A DNA stretch of 64,000 nucleotides from Candidatus Spongiisociaceae bacterium (GCA_965262915.1 OZ253564.1:2752001-2816000), one strand, 5' to 3'; shown: positions 29,781-46,679, counted from the first letter of the stretch. The notes: generated from the sequence alone by a model not told the origin. Numbers and translations: made by a program.

Positions 29781-31019
29781 TCAGGTGATCGAGATGATCT
29801 CGTGCTGCTTGTACGTGGAGACCATCTCGTACCCGGTTTCTGTCACGTACAGCATTTCCTCGAGACGGACCCCGTGGTCGTGCATCTTCCCGTGCTGGGT
29901 CTCGAGTGCGAACGTCATCCCGGGTTGTATCTCGACCGGATGGTCCAGCGACCAGATCCGCGAGATGACCGGTGGGTCGTACTGGGCGAGACCGAGACCG
30001 TGGCCCCAGTTGTTCGCGGCGGCTTGATCCTCCTCCTCGTAGCCCCACGCCTCCCGGGCGGACGGCCACTTCGCGGCGACATCTGCTGTGGTCACCCCCG
30101 GCTTCACCGTCTCGATCGAATCCCAGAGCCACTTGTGGGCCGCGTCGTAGGTGGCCTGGTGCTCGTCGGTGGGCTTGCCACCCACACAGTAGGTGCGGTA
30201 CACGCAGGATTTGAAGCCGTTCCAGGTGAGGGCCGCGAGATCGACTATCACCAGCTCACCGGGTCTGATCATGCGATCGGAGAAGTTCCGCCAATTCGGC
30301 CACGCATTGGGTCCGGAAGAGACGATTACGTCTTCCACATCCTCCATGCCAGGAATCGAATACAGCTTCTCGAAAGCGAATGCCGCAACCTCGTTCTCGG
30401 TCATGCCCGGAGTCATGTGGTTGGTGATCGCGTAGTGGACGTAGTCACAGATGGCGCCCACGATGGAGAAGGCCTTGATCTCGTCCGGGCTCTTTATGGC
30501 TCGGGCGTTCATCATCGGCGTCATCCCGTCGGTCCAGTCGATGTCTCGTTTCTCGAACTCCCGCATCAGGTTGATGTCGATGAAGTCGACTCCGAGTGGC
30601 TGGTCTTCAACACCCGCCTCTTCGAGATCGTTCATCAAGGCGTTGACGAACTTCTGGACCTGCTGGTCGGCAGCGGGCCCGACGGCGCCCTTGATCCAGA
30701 TGTAGGAGTGACGGATGTTCTCCGTCGGGATCCAGGGATTGTGCACCTTGAGGTGGTAGCCGATGTCACCCTGCTCGTAGACGATCGGGGGCTTCCCCGC
30801 CGGCAGAACCACATAGCGCAGACCCGGCTTCAGACGGTTCCAGCCCGGGGTCAGCGTCGAGGAGACGTAGCGCATGTTCTCGTCGTAGAACAGGAGCAGG
30901 GCGCCTAGCCCTGCCTTCTCCATCTCGGCGTGGGCTCTCTTCAGCCGCCAGTCGCGGACTTTGGCCCAGTTGATGCCCTCTTTCCAATCGGTGCTGAGCC
31001 CGAAGAATGCTTCTCTCAT
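29781..31019 (-). CDS. M24 family (Xaa-Pro peptidase/creatinase fold) hydrolase
   Basis: ARAIKSPDEI, VIVDL, SCVYRT, GHGLGL, FALET, VRLEEM. Confidence 0.85.
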   Translation of the reverse strand: MREAFFGLSTDWKEGINWAKVRDWRLKRAHAEMEKAGLGALLLFYDENMRYVSSTLTPGWNRLKPGLRYVVLPAGKPPIVYEQGDIGYHLKVHNPWIPTENIRHSYIWIKGAVGPAADQQVQKFVNALMNDLEEAGVEDQPLGVDFIDINLMREFEKRDIDWTDGMTPMMNARAIKSPDEIKAFSIVGAICDYVHYAITNHMTPGMTENEVAAFAFEKLYSIPGMEDVEDVIVSSGPNAWPNWRNFSDRMIRPGELVIVDLAALTWNGFKSCVYRTYCVGGKPTDEHQATYDAAHKWLWDSIETVKPGVTTADVAAKWPSAREAWGYEEEDQAAANNWGHGLGLAQYDPPVISRIWSLDHPVEIQPGMTFALETQHGKMHDHGVRLEEMLYVTETGYEMVSTYKQHEIISIT

Positions 31020-31188
31020 GACTTGTCGAGTCCCTCCCCCGGTGTTAGTTGACCCTATCGGGGATCACCTCACGAACGACATCGATGAAACTCGTTATCG
31101 TCGAGGAGACCCTTGTTAGCCGACGATTCCCGTACACGATACTGCGGACGGGGCCGCTCGAGGTCATGGAGCGAATGTACAATGGCTT

Positions 31189-32226
31189 GTGGCTTCATCG
31201 ACATCGGGGGCGGACGGTACGCTTCTGGAGACCCGTCTGCTGAGCAAGTGGTTCCCGCGTCGGCGCACCGCGGCGGAGATCGTGACTCGTGCGAATAGGG
31301 ACTATCTCAAAGCCGTAGACGGCTTCTCGATCGTCATTCGGGCCGGAGAAGCGCTCGGGCTTGCCGGCGAAAGCGGTTCGGGTAAGACAGTGACCGCCGA
31401 GGTCATAGCCGGCCTGCAGCAGCCGACTTCGGGGAACGTCTATTTCAAGGGCGCGTCCATGACCGGGCGAATACCACGCTCCAGGAATGCCCGGTTCCGA
31501 CGATCGGTCAGCATGGTCTTCCAGGACCCCTTCGACTCGCTGAATCCCCAAAAGCGCGTCGGAAAGTTGGTGGCGGAACCCCTGGAGATCCACAAGGTGG
31601 GAACGGAGGCCGGGCGGCGGCGACAGGTCATGGAGACGCTCGAGCTAGTGCGCCTCATCCCTGCCGATAGGTTCATCAGCAAATACCCTTTCGAGTTGAG
31701 CGGCGGGGAACGCCAGCGGGTCGCGATTGCGCGTGCGCTGATCCTCGATCCGCAACTGCTCATCGCCGACGAGCCGACCACGATGTTGGATGTGTCGGTT
31801 CGGGCCGGCATTCTCAACCTGATCCGGGACCTACAGAAGTCAACTCAGATGTCGCTGCTCTTCATATCTCACGATTTCACAACGCTGCGTTACGTGTGTG
31901 ATCGCATCGCCATCATGTACCTGGGCCATCTCGTTGAGCTAGGCCCGGCGCATCGGGTCATGGCCGAGCGATTCCATCCGTACACGCAAGCGCTGGCCTC
32001 GGCGATCCCCGTCGCTGACCCGCGGATCAAGCGGGAACGGGTACACCTCTCGATCGACGAGGCCGGCTCCGCAGTCTCCAAGGGCTGCCCGTTTGCAGCA
32101 AGATGCCCGGAGAGGATGGACGTGTGCAACTCCATACGGCCGGAACCACTCACTGTGGAACGAGATCACTGGGTTGCCTGTCATCTGTTCAGCGTCGACA
32201 GCAGCCCTGGCTCGACAGCGCTCTGA
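31189..32226 (+). CDS. Oligopeptide/dipeptide ABC transporter ATPase (OppF/DppF-like)
   Basis: GESGSGKT, LSGGERQR, ADEPT, HPYT, GCPFAARC. Confidence 0.92.
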   Translation: MASSTSGADGTLLETRLLSKWFPRRRTAAEIVTRANRDYLKAVDGFSIVIRAGEALGLAGESGSGKTVTAEVIAGLQQPTSGNVYFKGASMTGRIPRSRNARFRRSVSMVFQDPFDSLNPQKRVGKLVAEPLEIHKVGTEAGRRRQVMETLELVRLIPADRFISKYPFELSGGERQRVAIARALILDPQLLIADEPTTMLDVSVRAGILNLIRDLQKSTQMSLLFISHDFTTLRYVCDRIAIMYLGHLVELGPAHRVMAERFHPYTQALASAIPVADPRIKRERVHLSIDEAGSAVSKGCPFAARCPERMDVCNSIRPEPLTVERDHWVACHLFSVDSSPGSTAL

Positions 32227-32518
32227 TCTCAGCCGACCCGCCGACCCGCAACGTGACCGGAGTTGATCGAGTTGTTACCGACGGTGCCACCCACATGGCG
32301 TAGGGATGTCGAGCCTATGAGGTGCCAGGGGTGGGGTATCAGCGACAGAGGTGTTTGGACGTAGAGGCTTCAGCGCCAGTTCGTAGGTGGAGACTGGCAC
32401 CCGTTCGCCTCGAGGAGCATCCCGAGTTCGAGGAGAACGCGAAAAGTCTCCAATCGGTCAATCCGATTCGCGAGACTAGGGTTTGCCATCCCGATCCCGA
32501 GAGAAGGAGGAACTCAGG

Positions 32519-34327
32519 ATGAAAGCTCTTCGACATGAGAAACTGCGCCTGCGCCATACCCTGTTGATCGTGTCCGTTGTGTTTGCCATGGCGGTCGCAG
32601 CGTGCGGTTCGGACGACGATGGCGAGACCGCCACAACAACCCAGGCGGCCCAGACGACGGCAGCCACCCAGGCGGCCCAGACGACCACGACGGAAGCCAT
32701 GGCGATGGAAGCCGAACTCTCTGATGCTACGAGGGTTCCGACCATACGGTTCATGGGACCGTCCGCAGGATACGAATCGCCGCACTTCGAAGCCAACAAT
32801 CGCATGTTCGCAGAGTGGGAAAAGCTAGGGATCACGGTCGAGACGACTTTCGTCCCCGACTGGGGAGGTTTTTCGGCAGCAGCCGAGCAGCGCGACTGGG
32901 ATATGGCAGCCGCCGGATACGTCGGTAATATCTTCCGAATCGATCCTGATCAATTGCTGTCCCGGCCGCTATATGGCGAATTCGCCGGCTCCAGCAACTA
33001 CGGCGACTGGGTTTTCGACGAGTACGATTCCCTTCTCGAGGCCTCCAAGGTCGAACTCGACGTTGACGCACGACGTGAACTCGTGTGGAGACTGCAAGAG
33101 ATCCAAGCACTGGACATCCCGGTAGTTGTTTCTTATCACCCCTCCGAGGTTTACACCTGGAACAAGAATGCGTATACCAACGTCGTAGCAGGCGTCGGAA
33201 CCGGTCTGTACAACTTCTGGAACTTCGTAGGCGCCGAGCCTATAGGAGACGACAAGATCTACCGTATCGCCATCGAGGGGTTCTTCCGGTCGATCAACCC
33301 CACGGCTGCCAACGACTACGACAGCGATGTCGAGATCCACAACCTGATCTATGACAGCCTGGCCAAACCGGACCCGACCGGTGTCGTGGTTCCCTGGGCA
33401 GCCGAGAGTTGGAGCTTCCCCGAGCCTTCAGTCGTTGACGTCGTAATCCGGTCTGGAATGACCTTCACGGATGGCGAGCCCGTAACGGCCGAGGATGTGA
33501 AGTTCAGCTTCGACTATCTCAAGGAATGGGAAGTAGGTCTTTACCAGAATGCCCTGGCGCCTGTTGAGTCCGTTGATGTAGTCGACCCTCTCACCGTCAG
33601 GATCAACCTGTCCGGCCCGACCGCAACAGTGACGTCCGGCGCACTGTCACAAGTGCTGATTCTCCCGAAGCACATTTGGGAGAATGTCGTCGCCGACGAA
33701 GGACTGACCCATCCTTCTGAATGGACCGAGACCAACATGATCGGAAGCGGTTCGTACAAGTTGAAGAGCGCTTCCAGCGAGGCTGTGGAGTTGGCGAGGA
33801 ACGACGACCATTTCGACCCGCCGACGTCCGAAGGTTTTCTGACCCTCTACTTGGCGGACAACCAGGCGGTCTTCCGTGCACTCCAGGATGGGACTATCTA
33901 CTTCCATCAGGTGGCAAGCCTTACTCCGGCGGGTGCCACCCAGGCCGCTAACGAGCCCCATTTGGAACTCGGTGAGGTCGGAGGTATCACGGACCGGTGG
34001 ACTGCTTTCAGTATGAGAGACGACTCACCGTTCCAGGACTATCACCTCAGGCATGCTCTGGCCCACACGTACGACTACGCAACCACGGTCGATGTCATCC
34101 TCCAAGGCTACGGAGCCCCGGGACAGGGCACGATCGGACCTGGGAACACCTTCTGGCAAAACCCGAACATCCCGCATGAGGAGATGGATGACGGTGTGCC
34201 GCATTGGCATCAATTCGATCCTGCCAAGGCGAGGAAGATCCTGGAGGACGACGGGTACCGATGGGACGACGAAGGCAATCTCCACTACCCGGAGAACCAC
34301 GTAACACAGCTCCACTACAGTGGTTAG
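32519..34327 (+). CDS. ABC transporter substrate-binding lipoprotein, family 5
   Basis: RBS AAGGAGG, lipobox VAAC, TTQAAQTT linker repeats, FTDGEPVTAEDVKFSF, IGSGSY. Confidence 0.9.
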   Translation: MKALRHEKLRLRHTLLIVSVVFAMAVAACGSDDDGETATTTQAAQTTAATQAAQTTTTEAMAMEAELSDATRVPTIRFMGPSAGYESPHFEANNRMFAEWEKLGITVETTFVPDWGGFSAAAEQRDWDMAAAGYVGNIFRIDPDQLLSRPLYGEFAGSSNYGDWVFDEYDSLLEASKVELDVDARRELVWRLQEIQALDIPVVVSYHPSEVYTWNKNAYTNVVAGVGTGLYNFWNFVGAEPIGDDKIYRIAIEGFFRSINPTAANDYDSDVEIHNLIYDSLAKPDPTGVVVPWAAESWSFPEPSVVDVVIRSGMTFTDGEPVTAEDVKFSFDYLKEWEVGLYQNALAPVESVDVVDPLTVRINLSGPTATVTSGALSQVLILPKHIWENVVADEGLTHPSEWTETNMIGSGSYKLKSASSEAVELARNDDHFDPPTSEGFLTLYLADNQAVFRALQDGTIYFHQVASLTPAGATQAANEPHLELGEVGGITDRWTAFSMRDDSPFQDYHLRHALAHTYDYATTVDVILQGYGAPGQGTIGPGNTFWQNPNIPHEEMDDGVPHWHQFDPAKARKILEDDGYRWDDEGNLHYPENHVTQLHYSG

Positions 34328-34340
34328 GAGCGAAGGAATT

Positions 34341-34371
34341 AAGGGTGGGGGCGATACAAGCCCCCACCCTT
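34341..34371 (+). terminator. Strong hairpin after the SBP gene (terminator or mRNA-stabilising stem)
   Basis: AAGGGTGGGGGC-gatacaa-GCCCCCACCCTT, a perfect 12-bp stem with no long U tract. Confidence 0.7.
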
Positions 34372-34464
34372 CTCGGTATTCGTTCGATCGAGCAAACCAC
34401 TAAGTGCTGAAGGGTTTTCATCGACGTCGGCCCACATGGCGGTTCGATGGGCGATTGAAGCGAG

Positions 34465-35778
34465 ATGATGCGAGCGGCTAGGCAGATCGTCGATGTCGAT
34501 ATCGGCGGGGCCGAACTGGGATCGGGTACGCGGTTCGCGAACGGCAGGTTGATCCTCGACCCCACCGAGGTGGCGGCGATGGTGGAAGAGGATGGGCGGA
34601 TCCGGCAAGCCCATGTTCACGTTGTGCAGCCTGGGGATGATGTGCGCCTCGTACACGTTCTCGACGTCGTGCAGCCCGTCGCCCGGATGAACGGCAGGAA
34701 CCAGGCGGTGTTCCCGGGTATTCTCACCCCACCCGAGCAAGTCGGGATGGGTCCGGTTCTGAGGATGAACGGACTCAAGGTGACCGTGCTGGGCGTGATA
34801 CCACCCGTCGATTCCTTCTTGACCCAGCAAGAAGGAATCCTCGAGATGAGCGACAGATCCGCGGATCTGTCGCCGCTCACCCGCGAACCTCACGTGGTGC
34901 TCGATCTGGCCGTAGATCCCGATATCGAGCCGATGGCAGCGGCCGAAGCCTATCGCAATGCCGCCCTGCGAGTCGCCAAGTACATCGGTGAGATGGCCGC
35001 CGACCATATCTCTGCAGGGGACATCCCCGAGGCTGTCGAACCGGTATCGGATCCGGCCCGGGACTCAGGCCGCCCCTTGCGTCTGATCCACATCTGTGAG
35101 GTATCGTCCTTTGGGCCTTTGTTCGATACGCTGATCATCGGCAGGTCGGCGCGCAATATGTTGCCGACACTCGTGTCGCTCCATGCCATGGCGGGTGGTG
35201 CGGTCGTCTCCGCCGACTACCACTACGCGGGCCAACGCAACTACACCTGTTACTACCAAGCGAATCCAGTTGAGAAAGCCGTCGTCGGTGTTTCTCCGAG
35301 TGGATCGGAGTTCCTGGGAACGGTGGTTCTTCCGGTTGGGATCGATGACACCAAGAAGCGTGCCGGGGCTGCCTTCGCGGCCCATCTTGCCGAGCTATCC
35401 GGCGCGGAGGGCGCCGTCATTACCGCGGTGGCCGGTGGCAACGCCCACCTAGACGTCATGTTCGCGGTGCGCGAGTGCGAGCGTAGGGATATCCCGACTG
35501 TTCTTTCCATCGTGGAGATGGCGGGTTCGACCGGTGCCGACCCGGGCATGGTCGACACGGTTCCGGAGGCAAATCTCATGGTGTCGACGGGCAATCGAGA
35601 GGAACTGATTGTTCTTCCCCCACCCGGTACTGTGCTGGGTGGAGCCAACCTGCTCGACGGGCCACAGGATGAGAGCGGCGGCGAGGACGCCACCGGCGAG
35701 CTACGGGTGCCGCTTCGAACGATTGTCGCTTCCAACAACGAGATGGGAGCATGGCGAATAGGAGCAACCTTGTCATGA
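34465..35778 (+). CDS. Glycine/sarcosine/betaine reductase component B proprotein-like (GrdE/G/I family), copy 1
   Basis: PGDDVRLVHVLDVVQP, GAVVSADYHYAGQRNYT..Q.NPV, GGNAHLD, MVSTGN. ATGA-coupled to the grdB-like gene. Confidence 0.82.
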   Translation: MMRAARQIVDVDIGGAELGSGTRFANGRLILDPTEVAAMVEEDGRIRQAHVHVVQPGDDVRLVHVLDVVQPVARMNGRNQAVFPGILTPPEQVGMGPVLRMNGLKVTVLGVIPPVDSFLTQQEGILEMSDRSADLSPLTREPHVVLDLAVDPDIEPMAAAEAYRNAALRVAKYIGEMAADHISAGDIPEAVEPVSDPARDSGRPLRLIHICEVSSFGPLFDTLIIGRSARNMLPTLVSLHAMAGGAVVSADYHYAGQRNYTCYYQANPVEKAVVGVSPSGSEFLGTVVLPVGIDDTKKRAGAAFAAHLAELSGAEGAVITAVAGGNAHLDVMFAVRECERRDIPTVLSIVEMAGSTGADPGMVDTVPEANLMVSTGNREELIVLPPPGTVLGGANLLDGPQDESGGEDATGELRVPLRTIVASNNEMGAWRIGATLS

Positions 35779-37097
35779 ATGTTGCCAGGAGCGGCACGAT
35801 CAGAGTCGTTTCCTACCTGAACCAGTTCTTCGGTGGTCTCGGTGGGGAGGAGGCCGGGTCTATAGCGCCCTATGTTGCGGAAGGCGCCGTCGGATCGGCC
35901 AAGCTTCTCGAGCATCTGCTGGGCGATCGGGGAATCGTCGTGGCCACCGTGATCGCCGGGGACAACCACATGGCGGAGCACCCCGGTGCCGTTGAGAGCG
36001 TCGTCGGACTCATCCTGGACCGCCAACCGGACCTAGTGGTGGTCGGGCCGGCCTTCCAGGCCGGGCGATACGGTGTTGCTAGTGCGGGGATATGCGCGTC
36101 CCTGCACGATGCCGGTGTACCGGCCGTCACCGGGCTGCATCGTGAGAACCCCGGTGTCGATATGAACCGTTCCAAGGTTTACGCAGTGCCGGCGGACGCC
36201 AGCGCGGCGGGCATGCGGGAAGCAATGGAGAAGATGGTGCGCCTCGGTGAACGCCTGGCGCGGGGTGCCGGGATCGGTACGGCCGCCGATGAGGGGTTCA
36301 TCCCGCGCGGAATCCGGCAGAACACGTTCTCCGAGCGCAACGCCGCCGAGCGGGCGGTCGGGTCGCTCGTGCGAAAAATACGGGGTGAGCCGTTCGAGAC
36401 CGAAATACCACTCCCGGTATACCACCGGGTAACTCCCTCGTACCTGGCCTCCCCGCTGCAGGATCTGACGCTTGCCATCGTGACCGAGGCGGGCGTGGTC
36501 CCGAAGGGCAATCCCGATCGTCTCGAGTCAGCCCGCTGCGGAAAGTGGCTCACATATCCACACGATGATCTCGATGAGCTGTCGGCCGACGGCTACGAGA
36601 CCATCCACGGAGGTTTTGACAACGCCCCGATCTGCGCGGACCCGAATCGGGCGATCCCCTTGGATGTTCTTCGCGAGTTCGAGCGTGAAGGAGTGTTCGG
36701 ACGCCTGCACGAGAGGTACTACGTCACCACCGGCATGACCATGGCGATTGCCGACGCCGAGCGGATCGGCCGCGAGATCGCGGCCGATCTGATCGGGAAC
36801 CAGATCCAGGCCGCCATCCTCACCTCCACCTGAGGGACGGGAACGCGTTGCGGGGCAACGCTTGCACGCGAGATCGATGCTGCCGGGATACCCACCGTGC
36901 TCATAACTCCGATGCCCTCTGTGGCAGGCAACATCGGCGCCAACCGGATCGTGGTCGGAACTGCCATCACGCACCCGCTGGGGGCACCCGAACTGGGATA
37001 CGACCAGGAGAGGGAGCTTCGCAGGCAGATGGTGGCGCGGGCTCTGGAGGTTCTCGCCGAGCGGGTCGAAGGCCAGACGGTGCGCCAGGCTTCGTGA
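35775..37097 (+). CDS. grdB: Glycine/sarcosine/betaine reductase selenoprotein B-like (Sec at UGA 36831-36833; about 440 aa)
   Basis: YLNQFFGGLGGEE, GPAFQAGRYG, GVVPKGNPD, HGGFD, DPNR. The frame continues past TGA as LTST-U-GTGTRCGATLAREI..AGIP...GANRIV...I.HPLG, the typical GrdB C-terminus. Confidence 0.92.
36845..36861 (+). promoter_or_regulatory. Candidate bacterial SECIS hairpin
   Basis: GCGTTGC-GGG-GCAACGC at +12 to +28 after the UGA, with G in the apical loop. Confidence 0.7.
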
Positions 37098-37223
37098 GGT
37101 GCGCGGCGCAAGCGCAGGAGATGTGCGGGTCGGAACCCAAACCGGACTAAGCCTCCGACGATCGGTGAGAGAAGACCGGCGAGCGACCGTACAAACGGAG
37201 AGATGTCCACGTAGGGAGACAGA

Positions 37224-38516
37224 ATGAGCCGGCATGTGGCAGGACGGATTGACGGCAACGGTCTGTACCAGTCGCGCATAGCGCGCGGAGGTGACTGGTT
37301 CTTCATGGCGAGCCCGCCGGTGGACGAACATGGGCGAATTCCAGCTGAGGTCGAGGTCCCGGCGCCCTATACGCTCAGCCCGTCGGCGCATGTCCGAAAC
37401 CAGACCAAGTATGTGTTCGAGCAGTACGGCGAGTTGCTCGACGACATGGGCGCAACCTTCCAGCACGTTGCGCAGGTCGAGCAGTACATACAGTGGAAGT
37501 CCCATGCCGACGGCTATCTCGAAGTTAGCCGCGGCACCGGCTTCCTGGACTGGAACCGTCCCAGCAGCGCTCTGATGGAAACCGGCGACTTCATTCCGGA
37601 GGGAATGGTGGTGTCCCCCAGCGCATTCGGGTTCGTTCCGCGGCCGGGTCTGGAGGGCAAGGAGATCCGCTCGACGGGGCTCGCGTACGCTCGCAAGTAC
37701 CCGGAATTCGGTCCCAGCTACACCCATGAGGCTCCGTTCAGCGAAGTCGTCCTCGCCGGGCCCTACGTCTTTTGTACCATCTGGGCTTCCGACTACGAGA
37801 CGGGAGTCCATCCGGACGTGATACTCCCGGATTGGGTCTGGTGGGGCCAGGAGATCCGCAACGAGGCACTGTGGGGAATGGAGGCCCTGCGCCGGAAGCT
37901 GGAAACCGGTGGAACGTCGATAGAGAACGCGGTCCATTGCACGGTGCTGCTCAACGAGATCGAAGATCTCTACGAGCTGGACCTGGTTTGGAAAGAAGCG
38001 TTCGGTGACAGTCCGCCCGCCCGCACCGTCACACCTGTACGCGGGCTGGGTGCACCCCGCTGGGAGGGAGCCAAGCACCATGCCGAGGGCTCCATGAAGA
38101 TGGAGATCCAGTTCAGGTCGATCCGACCGGACCACGGGACCGTCAAGGAGATCATCGAGGTTGAGGGTCAACTCGGGATCGACCCCGCTGCTGTCAAGGC
38201 GGGGGATCTGCTCTGGGTCTCGAGCCAGTTCGCCGGAGGGACCAAGGGCCTCGTAACGGCCCCCGATGCGCCCAGTCAGGTTGACTTCCTTTTCCGCCGC
38301 CTGCGTGATATTTGCGAAGCAGGTGGGACGACGCTGGATCAGCTGCTTCGACTCAGGGCGTACGTCTCCGATCCGAAAGACGGGTATGCCGTCTATGACG
38401 GTCTGCGAAAGTACATCCCTAGTGACCCGCCCTGCGTTGTTGTAGCCGGGGTTCCCGGGCCATTCCAGGTGCCGGGGTGTACTGTGATGATGGATGCCGT
38501 TGCGTACGCGCCGTGA
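37224..38516 (+). CDS. Protein with three tandem Rid/YjgF domains
   Basis: Three ~140-aa repeats (RGGDWFFM / LAGPYVFC / KAGDLLWVS, each followed by a helix and G.T). PPARTV occurs only in the middle domain. Confidence 0.75.
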   Translation: MSRHVAGRIDGNGLYQSRIARGGDWFFMASPPVDEHGRIPAEVEVPAPYTLSPSAHVRNQTKYVFEQYGELLDDMGATFQHVAQVEQYIQWKSHADGYLEVSRGTGFLDWNRPSSALMETGDFIPEGMVVSPSAFGFVPRPGLEGKEIRSTGLAYARKYPEFGPSYTHEAPFSEVVLAGPYVFCTIWASDYETGVHPDVILPDWVWWGQEIRNEALWGMEALRRKLETGGTSIENAVHCTVLLNEIEDLYELDLVWKEAFGDSPPARTVTPVRGLGAPRWEGAKHHAEGSMKMEIQFRSIRPDHGTVKEIIEVEGQLGIDPAAVKAGDLLWVSSQFAGGTKGLVTAPDAPSQVDFLFRRLRDICEAGGTTLDQLLRLRAYVSDPKDGYAVYDGLRKYIPSDPPCVVVAGVPGPFQVPGCTVMMDAVAYAP

Positions 38517-38654
38517 GATCGCGGCCCCGGTGCGGGGATTCGTAGGGCGCGGTGATCATTGGCGTATGGCGTTGGGGTACCGCGCCCCCTCCCCCGGCGC
38601 TGATTCGACGGCTTTCCCGTACGCGACCGGCTCGAGCCGCCGCGGGTCGGGCCC

Positions 38655-39641
38655 ATGACACCAAGCTACATACTGCGACGGCTCGGTTATGTAACTCTCA
38701 ATCTGTTGGTGATCGTGACGATTGCCTTCTTCCTGTTCAGGCTCGTCCCCGGCAACCCGGCCGACATCATGGTGGGTCCGCTGGCCAGCGAAGAACTGAA
38801 GCAGACGATCATCGACCGTTACGGTCTCGACGACCCGTTACCGCTCCAGTATGTGAAGTACATGCGTTCGCTGGTCACCAGTGACTTGGGCGCCTCGTTG
38901 ATGACCAACCGCCCCGTCAGAGAAGTTGTCTTCAGATCGTTCTCGAACACCTTGGTTCTCGTGCTCGGCATCTTCGTGGTCTCGTTCACGGCCGGTGGCC
39001 TCATCGGAGCACTTCTCGGCTGGAAGCGCGGTACCTGGGTTGAACGTGTCGGCGGAGCTTTGGAACTCCTGATACGAGGGGCGCCCACTTTCTTCGTGGG
39101 CGTCATCTTGATCCTGATCTTTTCGATAACCCTGGGGTGGTTGCCATCCACAGGGATGCGGAGTGGCGGCTTTGAGGAGACGAACCTGTTCCGCATCTAC
39201 ACGAGTTCCGACTTTCTCAAACATATGATCCTGCCGGTCGTCACCGGCTCCCTCTACGCGCATGTCGTACCCGCCTTGATAATGCGAAACACGATGATCC
39301 ATCTCAAGCACGCGGACTTCCTCGATCTGGCGCGGGCCAAGGGACTGTCCGAGCGAGCGGTGATGATCCGCCACGGTGTCCGGAACGCACTGATGCCCCT
39401 GATCGCCGAGGGCTCTCAATTCCTCGGCTGGGCCGTCGGCGGCCTGGTAGCGATCGAGTTCGTGTTCTCATGGCCGGGACTCGGTCGTGAGATCGTCAAC
39501 GCGCTCGACGCCCGGGATTACCCGGTCGCACAGGGTGCGTTTCTCTCCATTGCGATACTGGTGCTAGTGGTCTACTTCCTGGCTGACCTTCTGGCCAGCA
39601 TGCTTGATCCTCGTGTACGGCGCCGGTCTTCGACCGACTAG
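38655..39641 (+). CDS. Peptide ABC transporter permease (OppB/DppB-like)
   Basis: PGNPA, YGLDDPL..QY, ARAKGL, FSWPGLG, RDYPV. Confidence 0.92.
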   Translation: MTPSYILRRLGYVTLNLLVIVTIAFFLFRLVPGNPADIMVGPLASEELKQTIIDRYGLDDPLPLQYVKYMRSLVTSDLGASLMTNRPVREVVFRSFSNTLVLVLGIFVVSFTAGGLIGALLGWKRGTWVERVGGALELLIRGAPTFFVGVILILIFSITLGWLPSTGMRSGGFEETNLFRIYTSSDFLKHMILPVVTGSLYAHVVPALIMRNTMIHLKHADFLDLARAKGLSERAVMIRHGVRNALMPLIAEGSQFLGWAVGGLVAIEFVFSWPGLGREIVNALDARDYPVAQGAFLSIAILVLVVYFLADLLASMLDPRVRRRSSTD

Positions 39642-39654
39642 GCGGCGGCACACC

Positions 39655-40530
39655 ATGTTTTGGAAACAGATAGCGCAAGCGCTGCGGCGGGACACGATGG
39701 CGCTTGCGGCCGGGGGGATTCTGGTGTTGTTCATAGCGATGGCGCTGCTAGGTCCCGGGTTAGCCCCCTACGATCCCGAAGAGATTCTCAGGGACGAGAG
39801 CGGCGCGGCGCTCGTGCTCGAGTTCCCCTCGTTGCGCCACCCGTTCGGGACCACGGATCTGGCGCGTGACATCTTCTCCCAGATCCTCACGGGAGCCCGC
39901 CCCGTGCTCATCGTCGGCTTCTGGGCAGCCTTGCTCCCGACCGGTCTCGGGTTGTTGCTAGGGGTTCTGGCCGGCTACAAGTCCGGGGCAAGCGACACTA
40001 TCGTTTCCCGATTCGTGGAGATCGCTTACTCCCTACCGTTCGAACCGGTTGCGATCGTTCTCATTTCTCTCATCAGCCCGAGCCGATGGACCCTCATTCT
40101 GGCGATCTCGCTCCTGTACTGGCGACGTCCCACGCGCGTGATCAGGAATCAGGTATTGACGCTGCGGGACACCGCCTTCATCAAGGCTGCCCGGGTGGCA
40201 GGCGCTTCCAGCCGGCGGATCATGTTCCGGCACCTGATACCCCTCGTCCTTCCGTTGGCGTTCGTATATATTCCGGTCGCGTTCGGCAACGCCATCCTTG
40301 CCGAGGCGTCGATCAGCTTTCTAGGTTTCGGAGACCCCCAGTCCCAGAGTTGGGGATCCATCCTCCGCAAGGCCTTTGATGGCGGTGCTCTCGACCTGGG
40401 TTGGTGGTGGATGATCGCGCCGGGACTAGCCATCACAGTCGTAACCTCATCCATGTTCTTTCTCACCCGCCCGTTCGAGGAGGTTCTCAACCCTCGGCTC
40501 GCCAGGGAACTTCCCAAGGAAAAGGCATGA
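39655..40530 (+). CDS. Peptide ABC transporter permease (OppC/DppC-like)
   Basis: HPFGT...RDIFS, FIKAARVAGAS, EASISFLG, SWG, NPR. Confidence 0.92.
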   Translation: MFWKQIAQALRRDTMALAAGGILVLFIAMALLGPGLAPYDPEEILRDESGAALVLEFPSLRHPFGTTDLARDIFSQILTGARPVLIVGFWAALLPTGLGLLLGVLAGYKSGASDTIVSRFVEIAYSLPFEPVAIVLISLISPSRWTLILAISLLYWRRPTRVIRNQVLTLRDTAFIKAARVAGASSRRIMFRHLIPLVLPLAFVYIPVAFGNAILAEASISFLGFGDPQSQSWGSILRKAFDGGALDLGWWWMIAPGLAITVVTSSMFFLTRPFEEVLNPRLARELPKEKA

Positions 40531-41555
40531 ACGAGCTTCTGAGTGTGAGCGATCTCTCCATCGACTATCGAGCGGACGAAGAGTGGCGTCCTGCCGTTTC
40601 GGATGTCATGTTCACGGTCGAACGAGGGAAGATACTGGGAATAGTCGGCGAGTCCGGCTGTGGAAAGAGCACGTTGGCACGCGGGCTGATCCGGTTGTTA
40701 CCCGAGAATGGCCGGATCACAAGTGGCCGTGTGGTACTGGATGGCGTCGACCTGCTGGCCCTCACAGACTCCGATCTGCGGCGATACCGGTGGGACCGCG
40801 TGTCCATGGTGTTTCAAGGCGCCATGAACGTTCTGGATCCCGTTTTCCGGATCGGTGCCCAGATCGCCGAGGCCATCCGCTGGCACCGACCGGTCTCGAA
40901 GCGGGAGGCATGGGCGACTGCCCGGAGGCTGCTGGGACAAGTCGGGATCGAGGCGGACCGGGTAAGAAGCTATCCTCATGAGTTGAGCGGGGGAATGAAG
41001 CAGCGGGTGGGCATCGCCATGGCCATCGCTTTGGAACCTGATCTGGTGATAGCCGACGAGCCGACTACGGCCCTCGACGTGATAACGCAGGATGTCGTTC
41101 TCGGTCAGCTGATCAAGCTACAGCGATCCGCCGGCAACTCGATGATTCTGATCTCCCACGACATGGGGATCATCGTGGAGTCCTGTGACGACGTGGCGGT
41201 CATGTACGCCGGGGAGATCGTCGAGACCGGGAGTGTGGAAGATGTGTTTGCCGAGCCTGCACATCCGTACACGATCGGGCTCGTGAACGCCATCCCGAGT
41301 GCCGAAGCCGAGACCGATGCGGTCTCGATTCCGGGTCACCCACCTGCAGCAGGCGAGTGGCCGACCGGATGCCGGTTTCGTAGCAGGTGTCCCTTCGCAA
41401 CCGAAGGCTGTGAGGATCCGGTCCCATGGACTCAGCTCGATGAGAGCCACGGAGTTCGTTGCATCAGATATGCTGAACGACACGAGCTGAGGCGCCGGGG
41501 CGCCGAGCGCTCCGTCTGGGAGCGAGTAGCCGACTCGTGGGGAACATCCGCTTGA
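40527..41555 (+). CDS. Peptide ABC transporter ATPase (OppD/DppD-like)
   Basis: GESGCGKS, YPHELSGGMKQR, ADEPTTALD, HPYT. Confidence 0.93.
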   Translation: MNELLSVSDLSIDYRADEEWRPAVSDVMFTVERGKILGIVGESGCGKSTLARGLIRLLPENGRITSGRVVLDGVDLLALTDSDLRRYRWDRVSMVFQGAMNVLDPVFRIGAQIAEAIRWHRPVSKREAWATARRLLGQVGIEADRVRSYPHELSGGMKQRVGIAMAIALEPDLVIADEPTTALDVITQDVVLGQLIKLQRSAGNSMILISHDMGIIVESCDDVAVMYAGEIVETGSVEDVFAEPAHPYTIGLVNAIPSAEAETDAVSIPGHPPAAGEWPTGCRFRSRCPFATEGCEDPVPWTQLDESHGVRCIRYAERHELRRRGAERSVWERVADSWGTSA

Positions 41556-42853
41556 GTACCGTCGAATTGGTTACACACCGCGTCAGCGATGTTCGATTCG
41601 GCAAGAAGACCCGGGTTTCGAATGGAGAGCTGGTGGTCTCGAAGACAGAGCTGTCGGATTTCCTGGAGAGGGACCCTCGCATCCCCGACCTGACGCTTCA
41701 CATTGCTCGCCCCGGCGACAGCACCCGTATCAATGGGATCCTCGACGTGATCGAGCCGCGCAGTAAGGACCCGGACAACTCCCACACAACCTTTCCGGGC
41801 ATCGGCACCGACTCGGTCTCCATCGGGGTGGGCCGTACTCACGCAGTGCGCGGGGTCACTGTTATGCCTGTCGGCCGCCTACCCGATGGGCGAGAGACGT
41901 TCGTGCAGGAGGACTCTCTCATTGATATGGCGGGCCCCGGCGCTCGGTACTCGCCGTTCTCGACTGTCCCGCACCTCGTTGTCGAATTCGCTGACGTTCT
42001 GGACGGGAATGACGGGGACTATGTGGCGGTAAGGCGTCTTGCGGCTATCCGTATAGCCCGGTTCCTTGCAGCACGAGCGGTGGGTGCCGAGTCGAGAGAT
42101 GTCGAGGTCTTCGCGCGACACGATCCGGATCACGACATCCACGATGAAACTGACCGCGGTGATAACGACCGGGATTCGATCCGCGTCGCCTACGTATGCT
42201 CCTTGATCTCGGAGGGGCCGCTCCACGACACGATGCTGTACGGCCAATCGACGGAGTGCCTTCAGCCCCGCTGGATCACCGTGCCAGAGCTCGTTGACGG
42301 TGCCCTGGTCAGCTCCGATTTCCATTTCTCCTGCCAGCGGACCCCCACGGTGCTGTATCAGCGCAACCCGGTTGTGGAGGCGATCAGGAATAGGCCTGAG
42401 TTGGTGCTCGACGGCGTGATCCTGACCCTGCGGTATGGATCTCACTCCGAAAAGCGCCAGGCAGCAGCCCGAATTGTCGAGATGTTGGTAGAACGGAAGG
42501 TCGATGGGGTGGTGACTCATCCAGCAGTTGGCGGTAACGCGCACATCGACGCTCTCAATATCGTCCAGGAATGTGAGAAGGCCGGCATAGTAACTGCTCT
42601 CATACTGCAGGAAATGGCGGGAGACAACGGCGGCGATCCGGGCCTGGTCGACTCGGTACCGGAGGCGGATCTGATGGTTAGCTCCGGGAACCGCGATCAG
42701 CTTGTCGATCTGCCGGAAGTGATACGCACACTGGGCCCGGATCGACTGCGAGATGGGACTCCTACGAAGGGACCGTTGCGACTATCACTCCGGCGCTACC
42801 TCTGCAGCACGAGCCAGGTCGGAGCGCACCGCATGACTGCAACCGAGGCGTGA
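41537..42853 (+). CDS. GrdE/G/I-family proprotein-like, copy 2
   Basis: PGDSTRI..ILDVIEPR.K, IDMAGPGA.YSPFS, LHDT, DGALVSSDFHFSCQRTPT...NPV, GGNAHID, VSSGN. Confidence 0.85.
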   Translation: MGNIRLSTVELVTHRVSDVRFGKKTRVSNGELVVSKTELSDFLERDPRIPDLTLHIARPGDSTRINGILDVIEPRSKDPDNSHTTFPGIGTDSVSIGVGRTHAVRGVTVMPVGRLPDGRETFVQEDSLIDMAGPGARYSPFSTVPHLVVEFADVLDGNDGDYVAVRRLAAIRIARFLAARAVGAESRDVEVFARHDPDHDIHDETDRGDNDRDSIRVAYVCSLISEGPLHDTMLYGQSTECLQPRWITVPELVDGALVSSDFHFSCQRTPTVLYQRNPVVEAIRNRPELVLDGVILTLRYGSHSEKRQAAARIVEMLVERKVDGVVTHPAVGGNAHIDALNIVQECEKAGIVTALILQEMAGDNGGDPGLVDSVPEADLMVSSGNRDQLVDLPEVIRTLGPDRLRDGTPTKGPLRLSLRRYLCSTSQVGAHRMTATEA

Positions 42854-43059
42854 CAAGGAGCATTCCACCCAACCCACTTCTCGGCGAGGATCATCCTGAC
42901 CATGTCCCGTAGTACCGGACTGCCGGCGAGGTCGCCGGATCCTGGCACATTGGTCCGGATCCCACCTTTCCGAGTCGAAGTCCGCCCGCGAGATCCCGCG
43001 TCGTCCCGAGTGAGACAACGAGAAAGGGAGTTGGCTAGGTCTGGCGCCAATACCAATAC

Positions 43060-43200
43060 GAATCTCCCTCACCACCGCATCGCATACTCCAGTTACCAGG
43101 ACGACGGCGAACTCTACGACTGGGAGATTTGCATCCTCGATCTGGACACCGGTGTCGAACAACAAATCACCAATAACGTCGGCGGCGACTGGCGTGGTCT
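43060..43200 (+). pseudogene. Remnant of a TolB/PD40 beta-propeller gene
   Basis: RIAYSSYQD...WEICILDLDTGVEQQITNN resembles one PD40 repeat; the flanking ORF sequence is not protein-like. Confidence 0.45.
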
Positions 43201-43639
43201 CCTTAGCCAAGAGCGGCTCGGGCTTCCATGCCGGGTAGGAGGTGTTGAAAGTATCATTGGCGAAGGCCACGCCGTCTGGTCCGGCGTCAGTAGCTCACGC
43301 CACTCGTTCGTCAAGTTGCTGACAATCTCGGGGGTCGTGGTGGCTTATCTGCTCGACGAGCCATCAGCTGTCGGTTCGCTACACCCCGAGCGGGACGATG
43401 CTCAACGGAAGAGACTCCCCACAGCCCGACAACCTCGAATCGAGGGGTGTCCGGGCAGGTTCCCGGCCAGCCTCCTCGACCACAGCATCGTGTAGCAATG
43501 TGTCATCGTATCCCCCGTAGCCTGGTCGCGGAGGATCAGTCTCGGGTTACCTGACTGTGGGAACGCATTCAGCGGGACAGCGGTGGATTCGAACTCGCGG
43601 TCTCGATGCCGAGCAGCGAGGACCGTCTCTTGGGACGAT

Positions 43640-43871: not shown

Positions 43872-44048
43872 TCCGACCCGGGTAAGGTTCCTCTACCTGG
43901 CGGCTGTGATCGATGTCTGGTCAAGGCGGGTAGTGGGATGGTCCGTACGCAGCGATCTGACCACACCGGCCCGACCAGCCTACAAACACGCCCAACAGCA
44001 AAGGTGTCCAGCCGATGGGGGCATGCCAGTGCCACAGTGAGAGGTCGG

Positions 44049-46679
44049 ATGAGCAAGAAGTACGTTTTCAGTTTCGATGAGGCCGATCCCAGGGACAATG
44101 ATCTACTGGGAGGCAAGGGCGCCGGGTTGGCCCGGATGGTCGAGATGGGTTTGGCCGTGCCCCCCGGGTTCACCATCACCACCGCCGCGTGCCGTTCCTT
44201 CTTGGAAGGAGGTCGGGTTCCTCCGAAGCTCTGGTCGCAGGTGGAAGCCGCTCTGACGAGGATCGAGGACCGGACCGGACGGCGCTTGGGAGGAATGGGA
44301 GGGGCTCCGCTTCTGCTGTCGGCCCGCTCTGGCGCCAAGTTCTCCATGCCGGGCATGATGGATACTGTGCTCAACCTTGGCGCTAACCACGCAGTCGTCT
44401 CCGAGTTGACGATGTGGTCCGGTGATGCCCGCTTCGCCTGGGATGCCTACCGACGGATGATCCAGACCTACGGGGATGTTGTGCTGGGGGCAGAGAGAGA
44501 TGATTTCGAAGCGGTGATGAGCAGTCTCCGGGGTCGGAGGAACGTGACAGAAGACTCCCGACTCCCCACGTCCGACCTCGTTGAGGCCGTTCGGAGGTTT
44601 CGTGTGATTCTGGCAGCCCAGCATCAAGAGGTTCCCGCTGATCCCATGGAACAGTTGCGGACATCAATTCAAGCCGTCTTCGAGTCCTGGAATTCGCCGC
44701 GTGCGTACAGTTACCGCCGCCTCAACGGCATTGCCCACGATCTGGGAACAGCCTGCAACATCCAGATGATGGTCTTTGGAAATCTCGGCGGCGACTCGGG
44801 CACCGGAGTGTATTTCACTCGCGACCCGGCTACCGGCAAGAGAGAAATGTTCGGGGACTATCTGGCCAATGCCCAGGGTGAGGACGTAGTGGCGGGGATT
44901 CGCCAGACATCTCCCATCTCTTCTCTCGCCGAGGTTCACCCCGCGGCGCACCAGGAGTTGAGAGCAGTAGGAGACTCCTTGGAGTCTGTGTATTCGGATA
45001 TGTGTGACATCGAGTTCACCATCGAGAAGGGAAAGCTCTGGATACTGCAGACGCGGGTCGGTAAACGTTCCGGGGCGGCGGCGGTAAGAGCAGCGGTGGA
45101 GATGGTGGGGGAAGGTTTGATCGACCGGAAGACGGCCTTGATGAGGGTCGAGCCCACCCAGTTGGAACAATTGCTCGTTCCCGGGGTAAACGAGGAGAAA
45201 TCTCCTCCTCCGGCGTTCTTCGGATTGGAGGCGTCTCCCGGTGCCGCTACGGGAAGGGCTGTTTTCGATGTTCCCAAGGCGGTGGAATGGGCCGCTCAGG
45301 GCATTCCGGTGATACTGGTTCGGTGGGAGACGACCCCCGACGACATCGACGGGATGTTCGCCTCCCAAGGGATCCTCACCAGCCACGGTGGTAAGACCAG
45401 CCACGCGGCGGTTGTGGCCCGGGCCATGGGGACTCCGGCAGTCACCGGCGCCGCGGAGGTGACGATAAACGCGCAAAGGGGATTCTTCACCGCGCCGGAT
45501 GGTGTCCGGGTGAACGAAGGCGAGATGATCGCTATCGACGGCACCACGGGACGGGTGTTCGTCGGCGAAGTGGAGTTGGTGGCGCCATCTCCACCTGCAG
45601 AGTTGACGACGCTGCTGGAATGGGCCGACGAAACCCGACGCCTGGGAATATGGGCGAATGCCGACACGGGCGAGGAGGCTGCCCGCGCCGCCGAACTTGG
45701 CGCCGAAGGCATAGGGCTTGCCAGAACCGAGCACATGTTCATGGGTGACAGGTTGCCGGTGGTGCGACGCATCATCATGGACGAGGAACCCCGGGCTGCC
45801 TTGAGCAAGCTGCAAGAGTTGCAGGCCGATGACTTCACGGGTCTGCTGGAAGCCATGGACGGTAAGCCCGTGGTGGTCCGGTTACTCGATCCTCCTCTCC
45901 ATGAGTTTCTACCGGATCGCTGGGACCTTCGTCACCAGTACGACGAACTGTGCAGGAGGGGCGAATCCACGGCCGAGGTGGAGCGAATGATGGAGGTTGT
46001 CAGGAGTTGGGAAGAGACCAATCCGATGCTTGGCCTCCGTGGAGTTCGGCTGGGGTTGATTCGTCCCTCCCTCTACCGGGTACAGATCCGGGCGGCGCTG
46101 CAGGCCATTCGACGCCGCTTGGAGGCAGGGGGCAATCCGATGTTGGAGATCATGGTTCCCTTGGTAGTCGGTCCCGAAGAAATGGAGAGGGTGGCAGTGA
46201 TGCTCGCCGAAGAGCAAGCGGCCTTCGGCGTTGATCGTAAGGTGAAGTTGGGTAACATGGTGGAGATCCCCCGCGCCGCTCTGCTGGCGGGAGAATTGGC
46301 CCGCATCTCGGAGTTCTTCTCGTTCGGCACGAACGATCTCACGCAAACCACCTTCGGTATGAGTCGCGACGACGCGGAAGCTCGCTTCCTCAACACCTAC
46401 CTGGCCGACGGCATCCTGTCACAGAACCCCTTCCAGTCACTGGATGAAGACGGTGTCGGACAGTTGGTGAAGTGGGCTACGGAGCGAGGAAGAGCGGCTC
46501 GGGCGGATCTGACTCTGGGACTGTGCGGTGAGCACGGGGGGGACCCCGACAGCATTGACTTCTGCCACCGGGTGGGCCTCGACTACGTCTCCATGAGTCC
46601 CCCCCGAATACCTGGCGCCCGTCTCGCCGCTGCCCAAGCGGCAATCCGCAACCGCACCGATTCTGCTGGGGAATCCTGA
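44049..46679 (+). CDS. ppdK: Pyruvate, phosphate dikinase
   Basis: LLGGKGAGL, RSGAKFSMPGMMDT, NAQGEDVVAG, GGKTSHAAVVAR, FGTNDLTQ, CGEHGG. Confidence 0.97.
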   Translation: MSKKYVFSFDEADPRDNDLLGGKGAGLARMVEMGLAVPPGFTITTAACRSFLEGGRVPPKLWSQVEAALTRIEDRTGRRLGGMGGAPLLLSARSGAKFSMPGMMDTVLNLGANHAVVSELTMWSGDARFAWDAYRRMIQTYGDVVLGAERDDFEAVMSSLRGRRNVTEDSRLPTSDLVEAVRRFRVILAAQHQEVPADPMEQLRTSIQAVFESWNSPRAYSYRRLNGIAHDLGTACNIQMMVFGNLGGDSGTGVYFTRDPATGKREMFGDYLANAQGEDVVAGIRQTSPISSLAEVHPAAHQELRAVGDSLESVYSDMCDIEFTIEKGKLWILQTRVGKRSGAAAVRAAVEMVGEGLIDRKTALMRVEPTQLEQLLVPGVNEEKSPPPAFFGLEASPGAATGRAVFDVPKAVEWAAQGIPVILVRWETTPDDIDGMFASQGILTSHGGKTSHAAVVARAMGTPAVTGAAEVTINAQRGFFTAPDGVRVNEGEMIAIDGTTGRVFVGEVELVAPSPPAELTTLLEWADETRRLGIWANADTGEEAARAAELGAEGIGLARTEHMFMGDRLPVVRRIIMDEEPRAALSKLQELQADDFTGLLEAMDGKPVVVRLLDPPLHEFLPDRWDLRHQYDELCRRGESTAEVERMMEVVRSWEETNPMLGLRGVRLGLIRPSLYRVQIRAALQAIRRRLEAGGNPMLEIMVPLVVGPEEMERVAVMLAEEQAAFGVDRKVKLGNMVEIPRAALLAGELARISEFFSFGTNDLTQTTFGMSRDDAEARFLNTYLADGILSQNPFQSLDEDGVGQLVKWATERGRAARADLTLGLCGEHGGDPDSIDFCHRVGLDYVSMSPPRIPGARLAAAQAAIRNRTDSAGES

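Follow-up and report, generated by a model that had tools for sequence, protein, structure and literature searches.

Selenoenzymes of the glycine-reductase type are known from textbooks as enzymes of anaerobes that ferment amino acids; three nitrogen compounds are proven substrates, to which fluoroacetate has recently been added. In the accessible part of one study, several substrate-specific protein B complexes are described as feeding one common reductase system (PMC10838667). Moreover, fused 3x-RidA proteins have already been named, as the available text of Niehaus et al. 2015 (PMC4433059) indicates. Here, we describe a nine-gene cassette from the genome of Candidatus Spongiisociaceae bacterium (5.06 Mb, a single contig, 96% complete, 5.9% contamination), an uncultured marine-type actinobacterium of the Acidimicrobiia. 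The cassette lies at positions 31189-42853 of the analysed window, which is the whole stretch of 64,000 nucleotides at C1:2752001-2816000, and combines genes for a GrdB-like selenoprotein, two GrdE-family paralogues (GrdE1 and GrdE2) and a single-chain triple Rid protein (Rid3) with those of a peptide-type ATP-binding cassette (ABC) importer. A first-pass annotation of this DNA had placed nine co-oriented plus-strand genes there, had suspected an actinobacterial host and had regarded the locus as an orphan system working without GrdA, GrdC and GrdD. Gene calls and profile searches agreed with it on the genes, their positions and strand, as did the assignment of the host to the Acidimicrobiia. 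Our analysis indicates that the cassette is probably a new "protein B" module, specific for its own substrate and served by a dedicated Opp/Dpp-type importer, of a reductase that depends on GrdA and GrdC and lacks GrdD.

Results

Conservation of the cassette and its link to grdC and grdA

The gene combination is conserved: all nine genes are colinear, with 70-95% amino-acid identity, in three other genomes of the same Acidimicrobiia genus (L032 in G006, L033 in G003 and L034 in G001). Orthologues of the GrdB-like gene (81-85% identity), each with the TGA kept, are present in three of the seven other genus genomes, and the remaining ones hold only paralogues of about 44% identity. In G003, the genes follow one another on one strand in the order grdC-grdA-oppF-sbp-grdE1-grdB-rid3-oppB-oppC-oppD-grdE2, and the GrdB-like gene of the cassette is the sole full-length GrdB of this genome. 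The order in G001 is eamA-grdC-(aspartic-protease-like gene)-grdA, then the co-oriented cassette and after it ADH-kinase-aldolase genes, which in the window genome (G000) directly follow grdA. Two of the four cassette-bearing genomes therefore carry grdC-grdA directly upstream of, and co-oriented with, the cassette, and this speaks against the GrdA-independent component-B chemistry that had been suggested from the window. Within the genus, the cassette occupies differing chromosomal sites; since it follows grdA in two genomes and lies at another place in the other two, it behaves as a block. Exactly one grdA, always with a TGA, was found in each genus genome (8/8). Furthermore, the short metagenome contig L045 carries a GrdB-like gene 79% identical to that of the cassette, followed by a grdC-like gene. 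It is mainly because of the grdC-grdA adjacency in the relatives and of this pairing on L045 that we read the cassette as a protein B module using GrdA and GrdC.

Inside the cassette, grdE1 and grdB are coupled through an ATGA overlap. Distant homologues of the GrdB-like protein (55-62% identity), of GrdE1 (47-54%) and of Rid3 (66%) were recorded with the same longest-contig sizes (23201, 43521, 22930, 42596, 24618 and 3009), a hint that relatives at 50-66% identity keep these three genes together. A pattern scan for the clade of the GrdB-like protein returned three genus loci only, and in a phylum-wide sample of 401 species representatives the clade was confined to one genome, the window's own. 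The metagenome scan for this clade used generic patterns, and 79 of its 80 loci encode ordinary GrdB (38-50% identity), L045 alone being close.

Partner genes elsewhere in the genome

The window indeed lacks GrdA, GrdC and GrdD, as had been noted in the first-pass annotation. The premise of an orphan system does not extend to the genome, which has one grdA with an in-frame UGA codon (190-199 bits) and one grdC (589 bits; cut-off 450) outside the window, both at C1:3478236-3481613 and both without a second copy. The G003 copy of GrdC, which adjoins the cassette, scores 591 bits. A thioredoxin partner had also been noted as absent from the window; trxB is present elsewhere in the genome (404 bits; cut-off 343), unlinked to the cassette. 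The machinery for selenocysteine (Sec) is complete, with tRNA-Sec, SelA (373 bits), SelB (333 bits) and SelD (390 bits). SelD has an in-frame TGA; in addition, a low-scoring open frame with a TGA and a weak likeness to PrdB turns up repeatedly in the window genome and in many relatives (coordinates of these two observations, G000:C1:4560939-4561865 and 4665417-4665953).

Among the partners held to be lacking, it is only GrdD that is truly missing, but not GrdA or GrdC. The best GrdD match in the window genome reached 22 bits against a cut-off of 350, and tblastn with three verified GrdD proteins gave no match in this genome at E<=1e-3. In an order-level sample, GrdD was found in none of 41 genomes (E<=1e-10), though 18 of the 41 have GrdA. 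In the clostridial enzyme, the cysteine that forms the acetyl thioester belongs to GrdD. Among the generic GrdB metagenome loci with at least 600 bp of room, GrdC is followed by GrdD in 32 of 34, L052 and L100 being the exceptions; L100, with the order grdE-grdB-grdC-grdA, is like L052 in having no GrdD. A comparison of the GrdC cysteines between GrdD-less and canonical systems yielded no decisive pattern, and our full-text literature search returned no description of grdD together with grdC in Actinobacteria.

The genome holds three protein-B-type gene sets, namely the cassette, a set at 3.11 Mb and a set at 3.48 Mb. The 3.11 Mb set (C1:3108677-3114139, L012) has the order BKACE-grdE-grdB-choline sulfatase, and its GrdB, a Sec protein with the motif UGTGTRSG, stays under all equivalog cut-offs. 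This BKACE-grdE-grdB-choline sulfatase module is widespread in the family (L025-L031). The 3.48 Mb set (C1:3478236-3485356, L011) is arranged as eamA-grdE-grdB-grdC-(aspartic-protease-like)-(radical SAM, opposite strand)-grdA. Near model position 235 its grdB shifts frame, either because the gene is a pseudogene or because one base is wrong in the assembly; in other genera, the orthologues (L024, L029) are intact. Moreover, the host encodes subunit I of a haem-copper oxidase (519 bits) and is thus not a strict fermenter.

The GrdB-like selenoprotein

The GrdB-like gene (35751-37097, plus strand) matches GRDB (PF07355, 407 bits) and TIGR01918 (462 bits against a cut-off of 65.45), the latter over its full length (protein residues 18-444, model positions 1-429 of 431). 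To judge from the reading frames, translation most likely starts at 35775, where the ATG shares the ATGA with the grdE1 stop, and the true stop is the second TGA (37095-37097). The in-frame UGA for which a read-through had been proposed earlier is confirmed: there is one such TGA, the Sec codon at 36831-36833, which lies in the motif TST-U-GTGTRCG and is kept in the three orthologues. This TGA is unchanged in whole-cassette contigs from two public runs, each of a different study; the contigs differ from the window at 0 and 3 positions, have no indels and come from runs which may themselves be the source of the analysed DNA. A SECIS-like hairpin (36845-36861, plus strand; SECIS, selenocysteine insertion sequence), read from the sequence, begins 11 nt after the UGA and has a perfect 7-bp stem (GCGUUGC-GGG-GCAACGC). 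Across four orthologues, the two arms are without change at any codon position, the third included, and the loop shows one change. Compared with shuffled GC-rich sequence, the fold had no extra stability (z -0.25), and an Rfam search of 30500-43500 gave no match.

The protein falls under the equivalog or exception cut-offs of the described substrate types, with 425 bits for GrdB (cut-off 602.2), 458 for GrdF (800) and 408 for GrdH (775); the PrdB model gave 84.5 bits against a cut-off of 300. For comparison, 35 fetched GrdB proteins were labelled by the equivalog models: 18 passed GrdB, five of which also passed the GrdF exception, two passed GrdH only and 15 none. In a quick IQ-TREE search of 96 rows, supported only by the Shimodaira-Hasegawa-like approximate likelihood ratio test (SH-aLRT) and with several relevant branches long, the GrdB-like protein was placed in a 13-row clade (SH-aLRT 97) inside a 19-row clade (98) of metagenome proteins lacking a substrate label. 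All sequences labelled for glycine, sarcosine or betaine were in a separate 53-row clade (98), so that the protein does not nest among the canonical enzymes, in line with the first-pass annotation. Both the scores below the equivalog cut-offs and the separate clade count for a distinct specificity. PDB sequence searches with the GrdB-like protein and with GrdE2 gave no match.

Two GrdE paralogues differ at the pyruvoyl-precursor position

The two GrdE-family genes stand apart in the cassette, grdE1 at 34465-35778 and grdE2 at 41537-42853 (both plus strand), and match Gly_reductase (PF09338) with 236 and 271 bits, respectively. GrdE1 gave 144.5 bits with the GrdG model (cut-off 780) and 52 bits with FarE (675); GrdE2 gave 195 bits with GrdG (780) and weak matches to PrdA (36 bits; cut-off 700) and PrdD (25 bits). 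The pyruvoyl-precursor column, which in the canonical protein reads VSAC246DKN, holds Cys in 54 of the 72 aligned GrdE-family sequences. The segment HFSC266QRT of GrdE2 aligns with it, the orthologues of GrdE2 (71-85% identical) all have the Cys, and GrdE2 is predicted to be a proprotein which self-cleaves at Cys266 to give a pyruvoyl group. GrdE1 has Gly256 in this column and no self-cleavage Cys. Of 36 GrdE1-family proteins (E<=1e-30), 35 have Gly in the column, and 33, which are 47-100% identical, share DYHYAGQRN. The conservation of this motif with its Gly suggests that the loop is under selection without a pyruvoyl group, and by these alignments GrdE1 defines a family of its own.

The assignment of the column was checked against described proteins. 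According to the portion of PMC9908766 available, the pyruvoyl peptide of C. difficile GrdE begins at residue 242, and PMC10838667 reports that neither GrdI nor FarE is a proprotein. For the two GrdH proteins with a betaine label, the GrdE-type partners have Ser at this position, which fits a non-proprotein GrdI and supports the column assignment. In a quick tree of the same kind as for GrdB, GrdE1 and GrdE2 fell together outside the canonical clade, on long branches.

Rid3 resembles a chorismatase-like pseudo-trimer

Rid3 (37224-38519, plus strand) is a single chain of 430 residues with three Ribonuc_L-PSP repeats, whose Pfam E-values were 0.0047, 2.9e-6 and 9.7e-6 when each third was scanned alone; its orthologues in the genus are 91-95% identical. 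The AlphaFold2 model (predicted local distance difference test, pLDDT, 88; predicted template-modelling score, pTM, 0.91) matched chorismatases over its full length (4bps, 5a3k and 5ag3; E ~1e-12, TM on target 0.60-0.63, 12-14% identity), and single RidA chains superposed on ~130 Rid3 residues each with a root-mean-square deviation of ~2 Å. Chorismatases are pseudo-trimers of Rid-like domains, and the model suggests that Rid3 is a single-chain pseudo-trimer which resembles them overall. The arginine of RidA (E. coli R105) is found in repeat 2, in which PPAR267 coincides with the KPAR of 2dyy in an alignment. The corresponding stretches, placed by eye rather than by alignment, are RPSSAL in repeat 1 and PPCVVV in repeat 3. 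That the arginine appears to be confined to repeat 2 suggests a single active site.

The Rid3 family is not tied to Grd genes. Among its matches, 91 of 98 are at least 43% identical, and in a class-wide sample Rid3 is rare (2 of 401 genomes). At one locus (L040), which has no Grd genes, three Rid3 paralogues lie with an importer of the same type, permuted binding protein included, and with genes for a GntR regulator and two M20 peptidases. In a Streptomyces sp. (L043, 6415-13414), Rid3 lies behind an M24 peptidase and is flanked by the genes for E1-beta and E2 of a 2-oxo-acid dehydrogenase, which hints that the product of the family is a 2-oxo acid. M24 peptidases also accompany Rid3 in L036 and L042, and hydantoinase and CoA-transferase genes do so in L037. 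An imine or enamine hydrolase yielding a 2-oxo acid fits these settings, and a role in Grd chemistry is conceivable by extension. The idea that the Rid protein hydrolyses an imine may well be right, therefore, but the arginine appears to be kept in a single repeat of the three, and the family also occurs without Grd genes.

A dedicated importer with a permuted binding protein

The five components of the transporter all belong to the Opp/Dpp/Nik/opine type, and none of them reaches an equivalog cut-off. On the plus strand, they comprise an OppF/DppF-type ATPase (31189-32226; ABC_tran 112 bits, oligo_HPY 54.5 bits), a family-5 (cluster C) solute-binding protein (32483-34327; SBP_bac_5 179.5 bits), a permease of OppB/DppB/NikB type (38655-39641; BPD_transp_1 121 bits, BPD_transp_1_N 49 bits; orthologues 92-94% identical), a permease of OppC/DppC type (39604-40530; BPD_transp_1 92 bits, OppC_N 43 bits; orthologues 91-92%) and an OppD-type ATPase (40401-41555; ABC_tran 99 bits, oligo_HPY 73 bits). 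The best NCBIfam model for the OppF-type ATPase, whose orthologues in L032-L034 are 82-89% identical, was a dipeptide ABC ATPase subfamily (287 bits, under the cut-off of 408); the OppD-type ATPase reached 294 bits with the OppD subfamily model, under the cut-off of 575.

The real start of the binding protein is probably near 32519, and M13 is invariant in five sequences. With SBP_bac_5, the match runs over residues 302-605 and profile positions 2-288 of 368; with DppA, residues 262-608 correspond to the N-terminal two thirds, while the preceding residues 107-235, the first folded part, match positions 395-521 in the C-terminal third (residues 110-159 on Pfam positions 310-357). By tblastn, both segments were found in reverse order in two paralogues of the same genome. 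Because the segments have the opposite order to that in DppA and in these paralogues, we regard the binding protein as circularly permuted, on the basis of profile coordinates and tblastn; the AlphaFold2 model, made from a 5-row alignment, had a pLDDT of 36. Identity is 88-91% within the genus and 47% to the homologue of L040, which shares the permutation. In another metagenome locus (L054:3820-9507), an Opp-type binding protein and permeases lie directly upstream of a Cys-less GrdE and a GrdB with Sec, an arrangement suggesting that importer-linked Grd modules may be a wider class.

Flanking genes and occurrence in public data

An M24 peptidase gene (29781-31019) lies divergently upstream of the cassette in the window genome and in G006. 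We considered it as an obligate part of the pathway, as M24 peptidases adjoin Rid3 in L036, L042 and L043, and rejected this because it does not co-vary with the cassette: an orthologue is present in G004, which has no cassette, and in the cassette-bearing G001 and G003 only paralogues of 34% identity were found. Further upstream, 27981-29639 (minus strand) encodes a protein with the nucleotide-binding and mobile domains only of PEP-utilising enzymes. Downstream of the cassette are a gene for pyruvate, phosphate dikinase (43938-46679, plus strand; 1123 bits) and, ~5 kb away, a DDE transposase gene (47712-49271, minus strand).

A near-identical cassette is found in public runs of eight studies, one of which may be the DNA source, and the organism has thus been sampled repeatedly. 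No run listed as RNA is among those that contain it. Short contigs from two runs, which are only guessed to be RNA, lie on several cassette genes and speak neither for nor against transcription.

Discussion

Our comparison of the cassette with its relatives points to a new branch of the protein B family rather than to an orphan enzyme. What we observe are the genes present and their conservation, the Sec codon, the residues of the active sites, and the genomic partners with their adjacency in relatives; from these we infer a substrate class and a series of chemical steps. The importer with its permuted binding protein would take up a small nitrogen-containing carboxylate, possibly an N-carboxymethyl compound such as an N-substituted glycine or a peptide- or opine-like molecule. 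The GrdB-like protein would then work with the pyruvoyl protein GrdE2 and the non-processing GrdE1, and its Sec would accept the carboxymethyl group of the substrate. This group could be handed to the single genomic selenoprotein A (GrdA), which would be reduced by thioredoxin, and GrdC would handle the resulting acetyl unit in a lineage without GrdD for the release of acetyl phosphate or acetate. The one-site Rid3 would most likely act on the part of the substrate other than the glycyl unit, hydrolysing an imine or enamine or freeing a 2-oxo acid. The shared reductase described in PMC10838667 provides a precedent which counts for such a protein B module. A quite unlikely elaboration is a stepwise, selenium-dependent stripping of carboxymethyl groups from an imported opine- or aminocarboxylate-like compound, in which GrdE1 would serve a nitrogen that forms no Schiff base, GrdE2 the remaining secondary or primary amine and Rid3 the leftover imine, in an O2-respiring host with a new way of acetyl release without GrdD.

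Several other explanations have to be weighed against the proposed protein B module. The cassette might be the ordinary glycine reductase of the lineage, with imported glycine-containing di- or oligopeptides cleaved by housekeeping peptidases, the freed glycine reduced by way of GrdA and GrdC, and Rid serving as a general imine detoxifier. Such a role would agree with the only full-length GrdB of G003 lying in the cassette, with an importer of the peptide family, with GrdE2 keeping the pyruvoyl Cys needed for a primary amine and with the M24 peptidase divergently upstream in two genomes. We nevertheless consider it unlikely, as the GrdB-like protein stays at 425 bits below the GrdB cut-off and outside the clade with all labelled glycine enzymes, the conserved cassette itself has no peptidase, the M24 orthologue is also present in the cassette-less G004 and was not found in G001 and G003, and a strictly conserved, Cys-less GrdE1 would be left without a role.

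The first-pass annotation had instead favoured a module that works without GrdA and protein C. Such a module would be similar to D-proline reductase (PrdA/PrdB with PrdD and PrdE) and would cleave a C-N bond reductively in one step, with Rid3 hydrolysing the imine. The grdC and grdA genes directly upstream in G003 and G001, the grdC-like gene behind a 79%-identical GrdB-like gene on L045, the retention of one grdA in every genus genome and the low scores for PrdB (84.5 bits against 300) and PrdA (36 against 700) make this very improbable, even though the cassette stands alone in the window genome and in G006, no GrdD was found, and the two GrdE paralogues recall PrdA with PrdD and PrdE, to two of which GrdE2 has its weak matches. 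We also give little credence to two independent systems that are merely interleaved, a catabolic unit of importer and Rid3 into which grdE1-grdB and grdE2, acting on an unrelated internal substrate, were inserted. Here, L040 argues in favour, since it combines the importer, a permuted binding protein (47% identity), three Rid3, two M20 peptidases and GntR without any Grd gene, and Rid3 is found with M24 peptidases and 2-oxo-acid dehydrogenase genes in L036, L042 and L043. The same interleaved order in all four genomes (4/4), the movement of the cassette as one block and the equal longest-contig sizes, which hint that the GrdB-like, GrdE1-like and Rid3 genes are kept together at 50-66% identity, point the other way; apart from rid3, moreover, no enzyme gene of the cassette would then be able to use the imported compound.

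Several observations weigh against the protein B module that we favour. For its substrate, the genes suggest a class and not a compound. As GrdD was not found, the textbook pathway cannot run unchanged. The GrdB-like protein departs from the UxxCxxC form in that its first Cys is replaced by Gly (UGTGTRC), the commonest form in the fetched loci being UGTCTRC, and the trees of GrdB and GrdE are quick searches with long branches among those that matter. The cassette and grdC-grdA are far apart in two of the genomes, G006 and the window genome, with ~690 kb between them in the latter. With two GrdE paralogues, the GrdB-like protein could pair with either. Furthermore, none of the 80 generic GrdB metagenome loci contains Rid3; taken together with the importer and Rid3 occurring without Grd genes in L040, this suggests that Rid3 may belong to the pathway of the importer rather than to the reductase.

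The cassette represents an unstudied branch of the substrate-binding module which is tied by gene order to a specific importer. It also combines a GrdE subunit that is predicted to be processed with one that is not, and includes a fused Rid enzyme. The view that this is no described pathway is in agreement with our full-text literature search, in which we found no description of a combination of GrdB and RidA and none of GrdB relevant to Acidimicrobiia. Since ligands of the binding protein can be screened, there is a direct experimental route to the substrate. Moreover, with GrdD lacking throughout the lineage, the final step of the reaction calls for an explanation; the host also encodes an aerobic respiratory oxidase.

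Comparison with known systems

The cassette shares with the clostridial complexes GrdB/GrdE, GrdF/GrdG and GrdH/GrdI a selenoprotein B with TST-U-G and, in GrdE2, a GrdE partner with the pyruvoyl Cys. As in these systems, a single GrdA and GrdC would serve several B modules, of which there are three here. It differs from them by UxxGxxC in place of UxxCxxC, by its separate clade, by a second, Cys-less GrdE and by the lack of GrdD; in addition, its genes are interleaved with those of an Opp-type importer and a triple Rid protein, and the host is not a Stickland fermenter. The betaine system GrdH/GrdI and the fluoroacetate system FarB/FarE are close in another respect: according to the accessible part of PMC10838667, GrdI and FarE are, like GrdE1, without the processing Cys, and the CxxC after Sec is incomplete in FarB, as in the GrdB-like protein. 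Unlike these two systems, the cassette has a pyruvoyl-type GrdE2 as well, and its importer is of the peptide/opine type and not of the betaine type. With PrdA/PrdB and the accompanying PrdD and PrdE, it has in common a selenoprotein, a pyruvoyl proprotein and extra proprotein paralogues, whereas the PrdB and PrdA models stay far under their cut-offs and GrdA and GrdC are linked to the cassette.

Similar mosaics of likeness and difference are seen for the other components. Rid3 shares the three-domain, single-chain pseudo-trimer with the 3x-RidA proteins and the chorismatases (FkbO/Hyg5), being set apart by 12-14% identity to the chorismatases and by the RidA arginine, which appears to be kept in one repeat; in our literature search, which included the available text of PMC4433059, we found no link of a 3x-Rid protein to a Grd system or to a peptide-type importer. 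Finally, with two oligo_HPY ATPases, two permeases and an SBP_bac_5 protein, the transporter has the composition of the Opp/Dpp/Nik/opine importers, but differs from them by its permuted binding protein and by the splitting of the transporter genes around the enzyme genes.

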